A DNA stretch of 64,000 bases, taken from positions 48,918,001 to 48,982,000 of the forward strand of contig OZ024742.1 of the NCBI GenBank assembly GCA_964016885.1, read 5' to 3'. Positions 2,355 through 55,869 of this stretch are shown here, in pieces. The notes under the pieces were generated by a model, which saw only the letters and a program-made list of their open reading frames with translations, searched no databases and had not been told where the DNA came from. A program made the translations under genes and the position numbers. The first letter of the stretch is position 1, and the number at the start of each line of letters is the position of its first letter. The stretch is from Eledone cirrhosa (Eukaryota).

Positions 2355-2575
2355 AAATATTGATGACGTATTATGTTCCCTATTTTCCGTTTATTGTCAG
2401 GGAACGTCTTCACGAATCAAAGTATTGTCTTCCTGTTTTCCTTCGGTTGCAACGTTTTTCGAAATATTTACTTCTGCGTTCACAGATTGATTTTCTTTTA
2501 GTTTCAGAAGATCCCGTTAATGGTGGAAGCAGCGATTCTTTGCTTAAATTTTAATAGGTTATTTTAATATTTAAT
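2355..2575 (+). mobile_element. Solo pLTR fragment of PLE family A with decayed hammerhead (2500-2550)
   Basis: Reverse-complement match to 16320-16530; AGTTT-CAGAAGA-TCCC gttaa TGGT-GGAA-GCA..TGC-TT-AAATT. Confidence 0.8.
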
Positions 2576-4001
2576 ATAAGCGAGGCAAGCCAGCCCAGTT
2601 GCACTTCTTGCCAATAAACATTAACCCTTTGTGCGCCATTCATCTAACTGTAGACCAACAAATACCAACTAAACGGAGCATTGACAAGAACGATGGCAAA
2701 TGAATCTTCGAGGTAAGCAGTTTCCGCCCGAGCTGTTAGTTCACGCGGGATTCTCTGCTATACCTTTTCGCAATAATACCGAACAACGTACTGCTGGTCA
2801 ATCCTTCCTCCAAAAGCCGTACAATGCGGACATGTGCATCGGTCAGATGGATCGGGTGCAGATCTACACCAGGCCTACGCGAGAAATTCGCAAGGGTCTA
2901 TACCGAGAGAGATAGAGAGAAAGTGTAACTTAGTGGAAAGAGTGCGAATGAACTTTTGAGGTAAGTAGCCTACGCCTTACTGCTATGACACTGGAACCTG
3001 CTGCCAACTCAACCTGTGATTTTCTCTTTCACATTTACTCCAAAAGGCCAAAACAGAGGAGTATGAAAAGAAGGGGCTTAACAATATTTCTATGAAAAAT
3101 GCACGTAGACAGCTAAACTGTACTTTCAACTTCTTAATTTTCACCAAATAAAACAAGTTTCCTGTCGGTATATTTTCGTGAGTTTTTAACAGGCACTCAC
3201 AAATAAACGTTTCTCATTGGAGGTGGTATTTACCAATGCAACACCGGGATACACTGCTAGTGTATATATGTATATATTTAACCGACTAAAGTCTGTCGGA
3301 TGTGATGCAGATATAATGATGCGTTCAACGATATGTATATATGGTATGAGCCGGAGAATTATTGACTGTTAAATACAACGAAGGTCAAATGCAGTTGTTT
3401 TCAGGTTTATATTCATCTTCATGGTATATATTTCACAGAGGTTGACGGCTAGGTAGTTTTCTTCCTATCCATTCCACTATACTAAGCTCGTTAGATAGTT
3501 TAAAAAATATTTAAACTATTTCATATAACTTTAAAAAAATATTAAATAGTATAAAAATATTCCTCCAAAACACCCAAAAAGTTCTCTGGACAATGTTTTT
3601 TTTATGATACAAGGGAGCGGATGTATTTATTGGTATTGTTTCTATGCCAGTCCGCTCCTGTTTTAACCCTAGCGCTAGGGCGGAAGTGTGGTTCTGTCCC
3701 CAGCTCACGTCACTTCCAGTGGATATCGAAAATAGCAAGTTATCGTTGTAGGATCTAATTCTACACAATGCTCGCCTCCCTCCTCCGCTCTGCCTGCCAG
3801 TGGTTGTTATTTAATTATTTACAGATATATCCACCCACCCCAGTTGTAAGATTCGTCTGCAACACTAACCACCATTAAGTGTAAGTAGCAGAAAAGGGAA
3901 TACATATGGACGAAGTGTAGGAATATTATAGCTAAAATAAGAAGTAAACATGAAATAGATTAAATTGAATGGATATACGTAAAATAGATTACTTAAAATA
4001 G

Positions 4002-4105
4002 TTATAGTTTATACCATACTTATTATATTATAGTTTATACCATACTTATTATATTATAGTTTATACCATACTTATTATATTATAGTTTATACAATACTTA
4101 TTATA
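4002..4105. repeat. Minisatellite, 26 bp x4
   Basis: Unit ttatagtttataccatacttattata repeated four times. Confidence 0.9.
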
Positions 4106-4744
4106 TTGTAAATTTCTGACCATACTTTAATTTAATTTACTTCAATTATTTACACTGGGTCAATCTACTTTATTTAATTATTTATAGCCCTGACACATAG
4201 CTTCTTATCGGCTAGACACGTCAGAGCGAAGATCTAGATCAGTTTCACCGCAGTATACTGCAAGATGTGAGGAATATTCCTACATACACCACCTCACCCC
4301 GGACATTCCCTTTATATCGAAAGATTGCATGAATCTCCTAGGCTGAGGCTACGACATCTGCATGAACTCAATTAAGCATGGATCTAGTGAAGGAGAAAAG
4401 CTCACACACATTGTAGCAATATATACCGCAGTTAAAGTTTAACTATAAAATGAATACTTTATATTCTTTATTTTCTTGTTAAGCTATACCGTAATCTATT
4501 TTAAGTGTCTCTATTTAATAACATATAGTATCTAATTTAATATTCTATTTACTACTATTTATATATTATATGTATATATGTATATATATATATATATATA
4601 TATATATATATTGGAATAAATGCTCTGAAATAGCGATATATATGTGAAGATAGACATAGAATATTCGAAAATATTCTGTATGTTTATAATAAACATTCTC
4701 GATAAACATTCTCGATAAACATTCTCGATAAAAGCACTGGATAT

Positions 4745-4787
4745 GTAATCCTGAAGATTTCTAATGAGAATGAAACGCGTAGGTTAC
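4745..4787 (+). ncRNA. Minimal type I hammerhead ribozyme
   Basis: GTAATC-CTGAAGA-TTTCT aatg AGAAT-GAAA-CGCG-TA-GGTTAC: stem I GTAATC/GGTTAC, intact core, palindromic stem III ACGCGT, GUA cleavage triplet. Confidence 0.85.
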
Positions 4788-4946
4788 TTCCCTTGCTTTT
4801 ATCGAGAATCTAATTATAATACGTGACGTATTCTATTCTATAGCGATTAGGTCTTCAAAATGTTTATTATAAACATACAGAATATTTTCGAATATTCTAT
4901 GTCTATCTTCACATATATATATATATATATATATATATATATATAT

Positions 4947-5140
4947 AACGAAGGAAATGTGGTAAGGAACCAGATGGACCATAACGCACCAAAGTACTCA
5001 ATACTTATGGTAGTAGAGTGGGTAATAGGAACGAGTAGGACCCCGACGGCTAATTCTGGACTAAAGATAGTCCAGAGTTAGTCCAGAATTAGCCGTCGAC
5101 ACGGCTTGAGCTCAGCCGTCGGGCTCCTACTCCTTCCTAT
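4947..5140 (-). mobile_element. Short dispersed repeat (likely PLE pLTR 3' end) with 5' fold-back and the 3' half of a hammerhead
   Basis: aacgaaggaaatgtggtaaggaaccagatggacc...; other copies at 24568-24738, 36430-36630, 45751-45946 and 56590-56645; the family carries GAAA-CGGC..GCCG-TC. Confidence 0.7.
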
Positions 5141-5191
5141 ATATATATATATATATATATATATATATACACATATATATATATATATATA

Positions 5192-53183: not shown

Positions 53184-53387
53184 TATTCGAGATTGGGTTC
53201 TAAAGTTCATAGGCTGAATATGAAGCAGTGTTACTAGTCCTGTTAAATCTTGCATGTATTAATTTCAACACTTCTTATTAATAACTGCCTTGTTATTTTC
53301 GACGAACTATGTTGAAAAATAAATCTCATTTCATCATTCCATGAGAATATATTGGTCAGCCTATGAATTTTTCAGCAGACCTTCGTA
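53184..53387. mobile_element. Mariner-type MITE
   Basis: Terminal inverted repeats cgag..aaagttcataggctga / tcagcctatgaattttt..cttcgta. Confidence 0.65.
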
Positions 53388-53879
53388 CATGTATATATAA
53401 TTGTGTACTTGAATGCGAACTGTCGATTGTGAAAAGTTAAAGTGTTCTAACATAAATATTATAGCTATATATCTATTTGTGTGCATGTGTCTGCGTTTAA
53501 GTGTTTGTGTGCATGCATGCATGAATGTGTGAGTTTGAGAGTGAGGTGTTTATAACAATACAAATGTATCGGCAGTAAATAGCAGTGGTAAAAATCAAAC
53601 GGTCAAAAACCTTAGAAAATAAAAGGACTAAAGTGGTCAACCGAGATTCTTAATTGTTCTGAATCATAATTAACCCTTCTGTATCTTAATTAATGAAGTA
53701 ATTGGAGAAATTTACTACAATTATTAATTATTTCATTGTTTTGATGATAACTTAACATCTGATTCTTTCATAAAATTATGGTGAAATATTATAATTTATA
53801 AGAGAACAATTACAAAGAGTGGTTTGTTTCATAGAACCAGATCCGGTCCTGTTCTACTTGGTATACAAATTGATAAATT

Positions 53880-54640
53880 ATAAAGTGAGACATGCAAACA
53901 AGTCAAATTCATGCCAGGAATTTTAATTGTAGATACAAACATCAGCAACGGTAGATATGTAGATGACCCTACCTTAATAAATTTGAACAGAGATTACCTA
54001 CAGAACCTTGTAACTACAGTAAATGACAGAAGAATGTTTTCTGGAAAGAAAATATCTGCAAAGGAAAAAAAATCAATGGTAATCAGTAAGAATCAACATA
54101 GAGATAATATAAATATTACAATTAAAGGAAAACCAATGAACTGACACAAAATATTTTATATCTGGGATATATGTAATCGTAAAAAGGAAATAAGGAACAG
54201 AAATAAAATGAAAGAATGAAATAACCAGAAAGTCAGTTGAAGAACTGTCTAATATACTATCAACAAGAAAAATTAATATTAAAGACAGCAAAAGAGATTA
54301 TCAAAATGTTATGATTGGTCTATTCTACGCTTTGAAGATGGACAATTGACTTGAATAAAGGTTTCTTCAAACAAATTAGAAATAGTTTAGATGTCGTCTT
54401 TTTAGTATAAAACATAATACTAAAATGTTTTGATTGGTCTATTCTATGCTTTGAAGATGGACTTGAATAAAGGTTCCTCAAACAAATTAGAAATGTTTTA
54501 GATGTCTTATAGACAAACTTTTAGTATAAGGTGAAGAGTACAGAGCCGTATAGACCCGATTGCAGCAAGGCATAGGAAGAAGAGAGTCTGATAGACAACA
54601 TTTCAAAACATGGACAGAAGAGAAAATCAATAATGCAGTA
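53880..54640 (+). mobile_element. RTE LINE RT fragment
   Basis: ISNGRYVDDPTLI..LQNLV..SMVISK..ITIKG matches INNLRYADDT; internal duplication at ~54300/54420. Confidence 0.72.
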
Positions 54641-54757
54641 TTGACACTGAAAATGACATACTGTAAGTTAATTTTAATAGGCAATATCAACTTTTTAAAT
54701 GGAAGTTGAAGTTGTAAGGTATGTCAAATCTATCTATTTATAAGACTGTTTATATTG

Positions 54758-54823
54758 TATTTTGTCTGATGAAGGCATACCATATTTTTAATATGATATC
54801 CCTGAAATATATATAATGAAATA
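54758..54823 (+). ncRNA. Type I hammerhead in a solo pLTR-like module (54720-54950)
   Basis: TATTTTGT-CTGATGA-AGG..CCT-GAAA-TATATA-TA-ATGAAATA. Confidence 0.8.
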
Positions 54824-55787
54824 AATATGGTTTTATAAATATAGTTTCCATTTATTTAATATCGTAAATATACTCCAAATACTTGTTGAGTGCTTTTATA
54901 TCAGTTATAAATATTTACTCGTTGTAACCCAACAATTTAAATAAAACTTTGCATATATATATATATATATATATATATATATATATATATATATATATAT
55001 ATATATATATATATATATATATATATATATACGGCTTTCTCAATATTTATCTATAAACGTACCGTATTTATTTAGCAATAAGAAATTCCAATACGTATCT
55101 GCATACAGTTATACATGAAGCTAAATCCTAATTCTATTCTCTCTCTCTCTCTCTCTCTCTCTATATATATATATATATATATATATATATATATATATAT
55201 ATATATATATATATATATATAGAGAGAGAGAGAGAGAGAGAGAGAGAGAGAGAGAGAGAGAGAGAGAGAGAGATGTTGTTTCCGAAAAAGACGGTATGAT
55301 CGAACCCATATATTGTCTTTAGTAAAACTGCTACATATCAGTCAATATATCCATATGGTCAATCCTCCAAAACGATCCTAAAACAATGAATGGGATATGT
55401 ATAATAAGTTAACTTTGTTATAATTGTTAAAAAAAATATTGTATAATATATCAGTCTCTGTATCTAAAAATTGACTCAGCCAAATAAAAGCCTATGAATT
55501 ACGTACCTAACATCCAACGGAACCAATCACAGTACCTCATTGAATTACATTCTGACCGACTGCATTGAGTTCTAACTACGGTATCGACCCTACCGCAAAG
55601 GGTAGACTACATTATATATATATATATATAATAAAAGTATGTGTTCCTACATGTAAATAATACACATAGGGATGCAAGTATAGTCCGACCGTATGCAAGT
55701 GTGGTTCAATGGTAAGTTAATAAATTAATAAGCCAGAACATATAAAGTCAAGGGAAAGCAAATAAATTCACTCTACTTACTATATGT

Positions 55788-55869
55788 ACCTTTACCGCGG
55801 TTTCAGATCTCAAAACAAATAGATAATCCAAGCGGATTTCTATTGAGAAAGAAATCCTCGTCAGAAGGC
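55788..55869 (-). ncRNA. Type I hammerhead with long stem II
   Basis: GCCTT-CTGACGA-GGATTTC...GAGATCT-GAAA-CCGCGG-TA-AAGGT; palindromic stem III ACCGCGGT. Confidence 0.83.

Follow-up and report, generated by a model that had tools for sequence, protein, structure and literature searches.

Hammerhead folds in a 64-kb stretch of the Eledone cirrhosa genome probably sit at the 3' ends of truncated Penelope-like elements and of non-coding units copied by their enzymes

The hammerhead folds scattered over 64,000 nucleotides of Eledone cirrhosa DNA (the window, numbered from its first letter) probably sit at the 3' ends of dispersed repeats, namely six families of truncated Penelope-like elements (PLEs) and five families of non-coding units that were likely copied by PLE enzymes. 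An earlier note had read the folds as solo pLTRs or as non-autonomous, PLE-mobilised elements, and each half of that reading turned out to be true for different families. Of the eleven families that it listed (A to K), six can be assigned to the ends of ORF-bearing PLEs and four to non-coding, self-closing units with PLE insertion marks, with J placed in neither group.

The positions given in the earlier note are confirmed, as far as sequence comparison can do so, as genuine type I hammerhead folds marking dispersed mobile repeats. With a strict descriptor, six perfect-core matches were found in the window against a mean of 0.07 (maximum 1) in 60 local dinucleotide shuffles. A relaxed descriptor (CUGANGA or UUGANAA core, score of at least 16) gave 12 intact-core matches against a mean of 0.3 (maximum 2) in 50 shuffles, one of the 12, at 48133, being judged a chance match. 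All eleven families fit the type I hammerhead at the family level, and each is a dispersed repeat: genome searches with ten of the families returned 40-59 matches each, out of only 40 scored candidates per family, and in the genomic relatives the core is complete, also in families with a damaged window copy. The core CUGANGA ... GAAA ... UH, in a three-helix junction with helix I open, is found at the family level in B, C, D, E, F, I, J, K and N, and families G (36081 and 36181) and M satisfy the three-helix core with a U3-A8 variant. Family N (9874-10124), the 3' halves of M and L and two further copies of I had been missed. The stems were said to be unrelated between families, which is true insofar as no cross-family blastn match goes beyond simple repeats and neighbouring insertions, but G and K have letters in common in helices I and III, and B and L share a 28-nt stretch of helix II at 89% identity.

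An Rfam scan of the window, which had been proposed as a check, gave no match at the gathering score. At E<=1, the best 150 of 253 Rfam matches were microRNA-like microsatellite artefacts and one snoRNA model. A repeat search of the window was likewise dominated by microsatellites. Several other candidates were set aside: 29227 looks like chance, 29142-29237 requires a GUAA core and has no relatives among 362 loci compared, and the CTGACGA at 47903 is a chance occurrence within an eIF4A-like remnant.

Families A, E, F, G, H and I are identified by their upstream sequence as the 3' ends of ORF-bearing PLEs, mostly 5'-truncated. Their copies in the window are as follows, with clade types named from the protein motifs described below.

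2354..2569, + strand: family A, Hydra-type PLE 3' end; hammerhead with U4A core, GAAA also damaged
5279..9613, - strand: family A partial tandem; copy 5279-7129 with hammerhead 5303-5351 and endonuclease remnant; upstream copy 7146-7232 + 7812-9482 split by family C; inverted arm 9483-9613
11148..11371, no single strand: family A palindromic module; back-to-back hammerheads 11168-11218 (-) and about 11222-11286 (+)
16319..19358, - strand: family A, near-full-length Hydra-type PLE; hammerhead about 16340-16395
24839..25036, no single strand: family A palindromic module
29909..35340, + strand: family E, Neptune/Nematis-type PLE with broken ORF; hammerheads in inverted pLTR 30061-30103 (-), partial tandem 31098-31140 and 3' pLTR 35092-35134
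35776..35921, - strand: family F, young Hydra-type PLE 3' end; hammerhead 35801-35878 intact
36008..36356, no single strand: family G, palindromic Neptune/Nematis-type PLE 3' end; U3-A8 hammerheads 36081-36118 (-) and 36181-36218 (+); tail from 36292
42829..43200, + strand: family H, Hydra-type PLE 3' end; hammerhead 43032-43145, A9U family-wide
43597..44088, no single strand: family I palindromic module; intact hammerhead 43644-43709 (-) and, with altered G5, hammerhead 43877-43942 (+)
46147..46620, no single strand: family I palindromic module, young Hydra-type PLE 3' end; hammerheads 46290-46354 (-) and 46508-46572 (+, G5 changed)
54716..54950, + strand: family I 3' end; hammerhead 54758-54823

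Upstream on the sense strand, a PLE protein match lies in 13 of the 30 loci of A and in 9 of the 30 of H, while G's own endonuclease was matched at 90-100% in 5 of 30 G loci. In longer genomic stretches, the ribozymes of F, G and I have RT-endonuclease ORFs 1.2-1.9 kb upstream, and for family E the ORF lies inside the window. One family I locus, L201, has an open frame of 743 aa with the complete Hydra-type motif set (RWK-like, DKT, CxCx5C linker, CxxC/CxH, with GIY-YIG at the C-terminus and without CCHH). The same RT-GIY-YIG set is present in the window ORF pieces of family A, where the four frameshifted pieces at 16319..19358 hold RWR, DKT, CxCx5C, YIG, CxxC and CKH, and families F and H show the Hydra-type linker and endonuclease motifs. 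Judged against section 11 of PMC8557442, the protein motifs would place A, F, H and I in the Hydra clade. Families E and G appear to be of the Neptune/Nematis type by their CX2-5CxxC linkers (CIDKKCITC and CGRSNCGTC) and CCHH, with two Cys within GIY-YIG and two His. Pfam found nothing in any of the 20 window ORF pieces and no significant family in two long ORFs; among ESM Atlas neighbours, GIY-YIG and RVT_1 occur on 18-77% of members. The PLE hallmarks of pLTR, partial tandems, inverted 5' copies and a one-end tail are all present.

Families B, C, D, K and N, as judged from unit structure, are retrozymes, that is, non-coding units of 310-520 bp that close on themselves and carry one type I hammerhead each.

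4610..4920, + strand: family B retrozyme, 310-bp unit; inverted arm with long 3' end 4610-4697; partial unit 4720-4920, hammerhead 4745-4787
7234..7770, + strand: family C retrozyme, a little over one 520-bp unit long, inserted in family A 3' region; hammerhead 7426-7510
9633..10124, no single strand: family N retrozyme with a unit of about 420 bp; two hammerheads with damaged cores in palindrome 9874-10124; 3' pieces also at 21419-21802 and at 44214-44543
19516..20164, - strand: family D retrozyme, longer than its 465-469-bp unit; inverted arm 20072-20164; two core positions altered in hammerhead 19655-19745
55628..55944, - strand: family K retrozyme, 472-473-bp unit, partial copy; hammerhead 55788-55869

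The spacing from one cleavage site to the next is 310 in B, 472 in K, 465 in D, 520 in C and 419-425 in N, and the longest ATG frame in the units is 25-78 aa (coding capacity computed for B, C, D and K). The claim that many of the folds sit on non-coding modules is misleading for F, G, H and I, as these are 5'-truncated PLE ends. Linking the families to ORF-bearing PLEs, as had been suggested, succeeded for six of the eleven listed. The loci read, up to 30 of the best-scoring per family with flanks of 1.5 kb, could have missed rare ORF-bearing parents of C, D, K or N. No homology was found between the retrozyme units and the six ORF-linked pLTR regions compared, and no partner PLE was identified by this comparison. 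Families B and N carry a U10.1-U11.1 junction, a feature seen repeatedly among the hammerheads of the Hydra clade (PMC8557442 File S2). Four units folded as circles fell about 3-4.5 SD below mononucleotide shuffles, a weak control that is not used as evidence.

Three further families could be assigned neither to ORF-bearing PLE ends nor to retrozymes.

4948..5137, no single strand: family M, U3-A8 hammerhead (3' half) and an inverted arm; further copies at 24566-24724, 36430-36629 and 45752-45944
35448..35595, no single strand: family L, hammerhead-like 3' fragment with inverted arm, helix I doubtful; further copies at 21582-21657 and 43237-43339
51560..51690, - strand: family J, decayed copy of an old minimal hammerhead family (72-84% identity)

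Apart from one neighbouring E-type piece, J had no ORF link in 28 + 30 loci. Related sequence lies upstream, at 51767-51944.

It is unlikely that every family is the 5'-truncated end of an autonomous PLE, with the non-coding units being pLTR regions of PLEs whose long copies escaped sampling. This explanation does hold for six of the eleven listed families, the sample comprised only the best 30 loci per family, and J, L and M are without a parent. However, what precedes the ribozyme in B, C, D, K and N is the unit's own 3' part again, B forms arrays of 16 units, with an inverted 5' arm, and a sense protein match was found near D in none of 30 loci. Loci L090 and L104 had suggested a Hydra partner for B, which was rejected because the sense protein matches belong to distinct neighbouring elements with (TA)n between.

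A very unlikely account has the non-coding units born once from pLTRs and spread thereafter as satellite DNA, by duplication or recombination with no RNA step. The B arrays do give it some ground: variant units recur (units 1 and 9 of 15), distances are smaller within arrays (1.5) than between them (2.5), and a DNA-level route has been proposed for tandem growth (bioRxiv 10.64898/2026.07.22.740005). The recurrence misfits the copying of one monomeric circle and would suggest later duplication or a multimeric template. Duplication of this kind nevertheless accounts for array growth only, and arrays of more than two units were seen only for B, all observed copies of C, D, K and N being monomers or dimers. 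It does not explain dispersed copies over many contigs with fixed paired 3' ends, variable 5' ends and PLE-like inverted arms.

These features point instead to mobilisation by PLE enzymes, as the four non-coding families tested (B, C, D and K) share with the PLEs an apparent signature of insertion: they sit at (TA)n, have a pair of fixed 3' ends, and bear inverted 5' arms ending at the other 3' end. After removal of 28 duplicate views of a single insertion, the arms end at two different 3' ends in 10/10 inversions of B, 9/11 of C, 8/17 of D and 10/15 of K, and in the PLEs in 17/17 of G, 11/13 of I, 10/14 of H, 8/11 of A and 2/2 of F. A TA run directly follows the 3' end in 15/15 B, 23/27 K and 27/27 G loci, and the mapped end in only 15/28 C loci (where the reference stopped near the long end) and 13/27 D loci. 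In the proposed mechanism, the PLE GIY-YIG endonuclease would nick both strands of a (TA)n tract, and reverse transcription, primed by the nicked ends, would begin at two TA-like internal start sites that lie 70-335 nt beyond the ribozyme start. One cDNA would extend a variable length, and the other would stay short and become the inverted arm. With the ribozyme near the start sites, even short insertions would include it, which would explain the high motif density. Since the copies span the cleavage site, they were likely made from RNA that was uncleaved, multimeric or a re-ligated circle, and the ribozyme likely serves the element by cutting multimeric transcripts to unit length for circularisation. 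For a PLE of the anole, two RT start sites defining the tail were demonstrated in vitro, and insertion did not require ribozyme cleavage (PMC11167929); eight of nine Xenopus retrozyme dimers were without cleavage (bioRxiv 10.64898/2026.07.22.740005).

A bolder version is conceivable, though we rather doubt it in full. Five protein-free ribozyme RNAs would replicate as circles and be inserted at (TA)n by a Hydra-clade PLE dimer priming two cDNAs at two internal sites, in a genome whose hammerhead load, at about 50 per Mb, would be among the densest described, with abundant U4A and A9U families still cleaving with the help of the element's protein. If true, this would be the first insertion-level proof of animal retrozyme mobilisation by PLEs.

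The two core variants are family-wide. Family A departs from the canonical U4, with CAGAAGA in 67 of 75 motif matches (overlapping loci unmerged) and the remainder truncated or further changed, and family H (43032) departs from the canonical A9, with U at position 9 in 27 of 28. Families A and H would function as hammerheads at best as variants. Other window copies are damaged individually: G12 and U16.1 are altered at 19655 (D), helices II and III are broken at 51632 (J), GGAA replaces GAAA at 2500 (A), G5 is altered at 43877 and 46508 (I), and helix II is damaged at 31098 and 35092 (E). The large repertoire of self-cleaving RNAs that had been envisaged is a candidate only, because many window copies are decayed or locked in palindromes. 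Cleavage in vitro by PLE and retrozyme hammerheads has often been weak or absent in published work.

Selection by the host, with the ribozymes retained as a set that processes host transcripts, is very unlikely. Several window copies do have an intact core, and the core is identical in 30/30 copies of F and 28/30 of G. These two families are merely young, however, with flanks likewise 97-99% identical, whereas the older families C, D, H, J and K gather core- and stem-breaking changes, and palindromic copies would pair with their own complement. Helix variation within older families is mostly decay, and inserted ribozyme copies likely decay neutrally. Pair-keeping changes were seen in the I group, where 3 of 20 helix pairs changed on both sides and 94.4% of cells were paired, a value reached in 0 of 500 shuffles (the sequences are related and the structure was derived from them), and in B compared between organisms (two changes, each one-sided). 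That the listed families are chance matches in AT-rich, microsatellite-rich DNA is scarcely credible and is refuted by the shuffles and the full cores of the genomic copies: shuffles do yield 1.3 matches at a score of at least 14 with one core mismatch tolerated, A, B, G, I and J have weak z-scores when single sequences are folded, and 48133 and 29227 resemble chance, but against this stand the excess of intact cores, the presence of the core throughout each family at a set distance from each 3' end, and the pair-keeping changes.

The window is an example of a genome-wide state, being roughly threefold richer than a 400-kb genome sample with about 53 intact motifs per Mb, from which the genome total is estimated at about 1-2.5 x 10^5 motifs in 3.0 Gb. 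Motif matches correlate with (TA)n runs over 40 sampled bins (rho 0.51). As the cause of the window excess, (TA)n density was rejected (15.9 runs per 10 kb in the window vs 14.0).

PLE hammerheads and retrozymes have both been published already; new are the families, their density, the common signature and the family-wide U4A and A9U cores. To our knowledge, the case for PLE mobilisation of animal retrozymes has so far been built on co-occurrence and on kinship with pLTRs; neither the anatomy of insertions nor experiment has been used for it. The genome holds non-coding units with the two-end PLE signature, the young, 99%-identical retrozyme B and the young Hydra element of L201, which makes trans-mobilisation directly testable, and the two natural core variants offer a test of the importance of cleavage for the spread of PLEs. 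The repeats that carry ribozymes also make up a large fraction that escapes Rfam, which had no match in the window.

Among known systems, the Hydra-clade PLEs (Craig et al. 2021, PMC8557442), which include Hydra-1_Obim of Octopus bimaculoides, are like A, F, H and I in their single RT-GIY-YIG ORF with RW[RK], DKT, CxCx5C linker, CxxC and CxH, and in (TA)n insertion, a hammerhead near the 3' end, inverted 5' arms and tails. Their U10.1-U11.1 junction is also found in family A. In contrast, the 3' UTRs here are 0.65-1.9 kb, so some elements exceed the usual length of <3 kb, the tails measure about 65-165 nt against 30-40 there, and U4A (A) and A9U (H) cores are family-wide. A 2014 study (PMC4209133) described many heterogeneous hammerhead families per genome, with solo motifs and inverted pairs spaced 100-700 bp; motifs that are mostly single and derive from truncated PLEs, palindromic helix III and the U3-A8 variant are common to both, but several families here have a long helix II or III, and the genome total estimated above compares with about 2,000-9,000 motifs per genome there. 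The metazoan non-LTR retrozymes (Cervera and de la Pena 2020, PMC7229834; Li et al. 2026, bioRxiv 10.64898/2026.07.22.740005) resemble B, C, D, K and N as non-coding, low-GC units with one type I hammerhead, occurring as monomers, dimers and arrays beside PLEs. The retrozymes here differ in having no homologous pLTR partner found and in being known from DNA only, and they show the paired-end, tail and inversion signature of PLEs, which a word search of the main texts of those two papers did not find. The Poseidon PLE of Anolis (Frangieh et al. 2024, PMC11167929) belongs to another clade, and its evidence is biochemical where that presented here comes from insertion anatomy, but it shares two internal RT start sites defining the tail, an AT-rich target, cuts on both strands and a protein-assisted hammerhead.

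Hammerhead-bearing repeats are genuine and dense in the window, which belongs to a 3.0-Gb animal genome, has a GC content of 34% and abounds in (TA)n. They are of two known kinds, the 3' ends of Penelope-like elements (PLEs) and non-coding units. With a strict type I descriptor the window gave 6 perfect-core matches, where 60 local dinucleotide shuffles averaged 0.07, and a relaxed one (CUGANGA or UUGANAA, GAAA, UH and three helices, score at least 16) found 12 against a mean of 0.3 (maximum 2) in 50 shuffles. Core numbering and family letters follow our own or customary usage. 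Genome searches with ten of the eleven families first listed gave 40–59 matches per family from 40 scored candidates each, and 30 loci per family were inspected; family E was left out because its ORF lies inside the window. The window copies of D and J are damaged, yet their parent families show the full core in alignments of the ribozyme region (30 loci per family, 28 for J). Rfam returned no match at gathering level in the window. Outside it, RF00163 scored a further hammerhead family (18 matches of 74 scored, L001–L018), the only one above its cut-off in the genome search and (TA)n-flanked too.

Repeats and fragments in the window
175–340, 13059–13256, 20160–20336, 23003–23192, 24392–24566, 52413–52596 and others: 180-bp SINE-like repeat
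4948–5137, 24566–24724, 36430–36629, 45752–45944: family M copies, 5' breakpoints clustered inside the ribozyme
7234–7770: family C copy, exceeding one unit
10191–10512: 322-bp palindrome with GAAACAATTGTA, a hammerhead-like 3' half; few relatives
16319–19358: near-full family A copy, frameshifted
19516–20072: family D copy, exceeding one unit
40153–41205, 58455–59047, 62691–63998: LINE-type reverse transcriptase (RT) ORF fragments, by appearance
46655–47500, minus strand: Neptune/Nematis-type PLE ORF fragment matching the endonuclease of family G at about 56%, with no ribozyme end
47760–47960, minus strand: disrupted fragment without introns, similar to the C-terminal end of a translation factor, presumably eIF4A from its motif, and likely a processed pseudogene

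The link from hammerhead families to ORF-bearing PLEs, anticipated in the earlier note, was made for A, E, F, G, H and I and failed for J, an old family (72–84% identity) with no ORF link in 58 loci. Sense-strand PLE protein matches lie upstream in 13 of 30 loci of family A, 9 of 30 of H and 8 of 30 of G, where five are 90–100% to G's own endonuclease and three belong to an E-type neighbour; one G locus (L399) has an RT frame upstream. Within 1.5 kb no locus of F (0/30) and one of I (1/30, a neighbouring element) had such a match, because their 3' UTRs are longer: in larger stretches, RT-endonuclease ORFs end about 1.4–1.55 kb upstream in F and 1.85–1.9 kb upstream in I, and at another locus (L201) an open 743-aa frame lies 230 nt past an I ribozyme. 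By motif comparison, A, F, H and I match the Hydra clade as delimited in PMC8557442, and E and G, with a CX4CxxC linker and CCHH, are of Neptune/Nematis type. A Pfam search of the PLE ORFs was blank; their ESM Atlas neighbours scored 0.96–0.98, and in some of these a share of the members carries GIY-YIG or RVT_1.

Upstream of the ribozyme in families B, C, D, K and N, the 3' part of the same unit returns, at spacings of 310, 520, 465–469, 472–473 and 419–425 bp, respectively, and the longest ATG frames over the junction, computed for B, C, D and K, are 25–78 aa. Family B also forms arrays, one of them 16 units long with an inverted arm at its 5' side. Elsewhere in the genome, L333 and L343 carry a hammerhead of the U3-A8 type whose helix II is long. 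L343 has two copies of it, 595 bp apart, and it is likely one more retrozyme family.

Both kinds carry the same insertion signature. Nine families (J and N excluded) were mapped on natural reference copies after 28 second views of one insertion had been removed, and in each the 3' ends favour two positions, about 26–167 nt apart, and the 5' ends vary, the mapped loci being best-scoring matches and thus skewed to young, complete ends. Where an upstream inverted arm is present, the two arms stop one at each of the two favoured 3' ends in 10/10 cases in B, 9/11 in C, 8/17 in D and 10/15 in K, as in the PLE families (17/17 G, 11/13 I, 10/14 H, 8/11 A, 2/2 F). A TA run directly follows the 3' end in 15/15 B, 23/27 K, 15/28 C and 13/27 D, and in 24–27 of 27–30 loci in the ORF-linked families. 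In an anole PLE (PMC11167929) the tail is delimited by a pair of internal RT start sites, and the target is cut and extended on both strands; similar two-start priming would have made the insertions of PLEs and non-coding units alike. Since copies run through the cleavage site, the templates would have been uncleaved, multimeric or circular, and a single monomeric circle is countered by variant units that recur inside family B arrays. In family M the break falls 30–59 nt past core position 3, in loop II, in 71 of 79 copies; in family A, 28 of 62 copies have a 5' breakpoint within −15 to +44. RT stalling or folding back at helix II may cause this pile-up, or the short form of M could spread by itself.

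Sequencing-run contigs of four other organisms (X1, X4, X5, X6) also contain family B, in which it forms a tandem or circular path of 310 nt. These differ from the window copy at four places (X6 spans just two). Every one lies in the 43-nt ribozyme (N7, a single letter of loop II, and two letters of helix I whose pairing is kept) and is structure-neutral; the remaining 258 nt show no difference. The ribozyme reference was L081:1521–1563, to which two further differences are private.

Many of the copies in the window carry core changes or lie within palindromes able to pair with their own complement; no 5' hammerhead core was found in the 10191–10512 palindrome. Of 75 family A motif matches, 67 have the core CAGAAGA, and family H has U9 in 27 of 28, overlapping loci being unmerged in both counts. 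Helices of the I group have three pairs with two-sided change among nine related sequences, from which the structure itself was drawn.

A sample of forty 10-kb stretches, placed at round coordinates over 16 contigs and weighted equally whatever the contig size, held 23 relaxed-descriptor matches against 0–4 (mean 1.7) in 10 shuffles, for an estimated ~53 hammerhead motifs per Mb (Poisson range 32–82), or 1.0–2.5 x 10^5 per genome, with a descriptor that overlooks U4A, A9U and decayed copies. The window, with 12 matches against 3.7 expected (P 0.0004) and about 9 insertions against 3.2 (P 0.006), is an upper-tail example, as it was chosen for its hammerheads. The 180-bp SINE-like repeat is very abundant (88 matches in the same 400 kb of sampled sequence), and no hammerhead was seen in it.

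Much of this has precedent. PMC4209133 describes a wide variety of minimal hammerhead families within single genomes, with lone motifs left by truncated PLEs, inverted pairs and little activity in vitro. PMC7229834 defines animal retrozymes and names PLEs as candidate mobilisers; its motif counts exceed 6000, spread over 16 families, for a coral and reach 120,000 for axolotl. Vertebrate retrozymes are tied to PLE terminal repeats in bioRxiv 10.64898/2026.07.22.740005, where 1/9 dimers cleaved and molluscs are absent from the sample. Octopus bimaculoides has a Hydra element with a hammerhead (PMC8557442), and ribozymes go unmentioned in the passages of PMC13282606 consulted. The novelty seen in the earlier note is mostly already published. 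U3-A8 and U10.1-U11.1 variants were already known (PMC4209133; PMC3088659; PMC8557442 File S2); U4A and A9U cores were not found in the text consulted or, for U4A, in a literature search. A literature search, thin on subscription journals, found no report of PLE-type tails or inversions in retrozymes. To the published systems, the present analysis adds a retrozyme–PLE link at the level of insertions, suggested by their anatomy, together with the density and two core variants.
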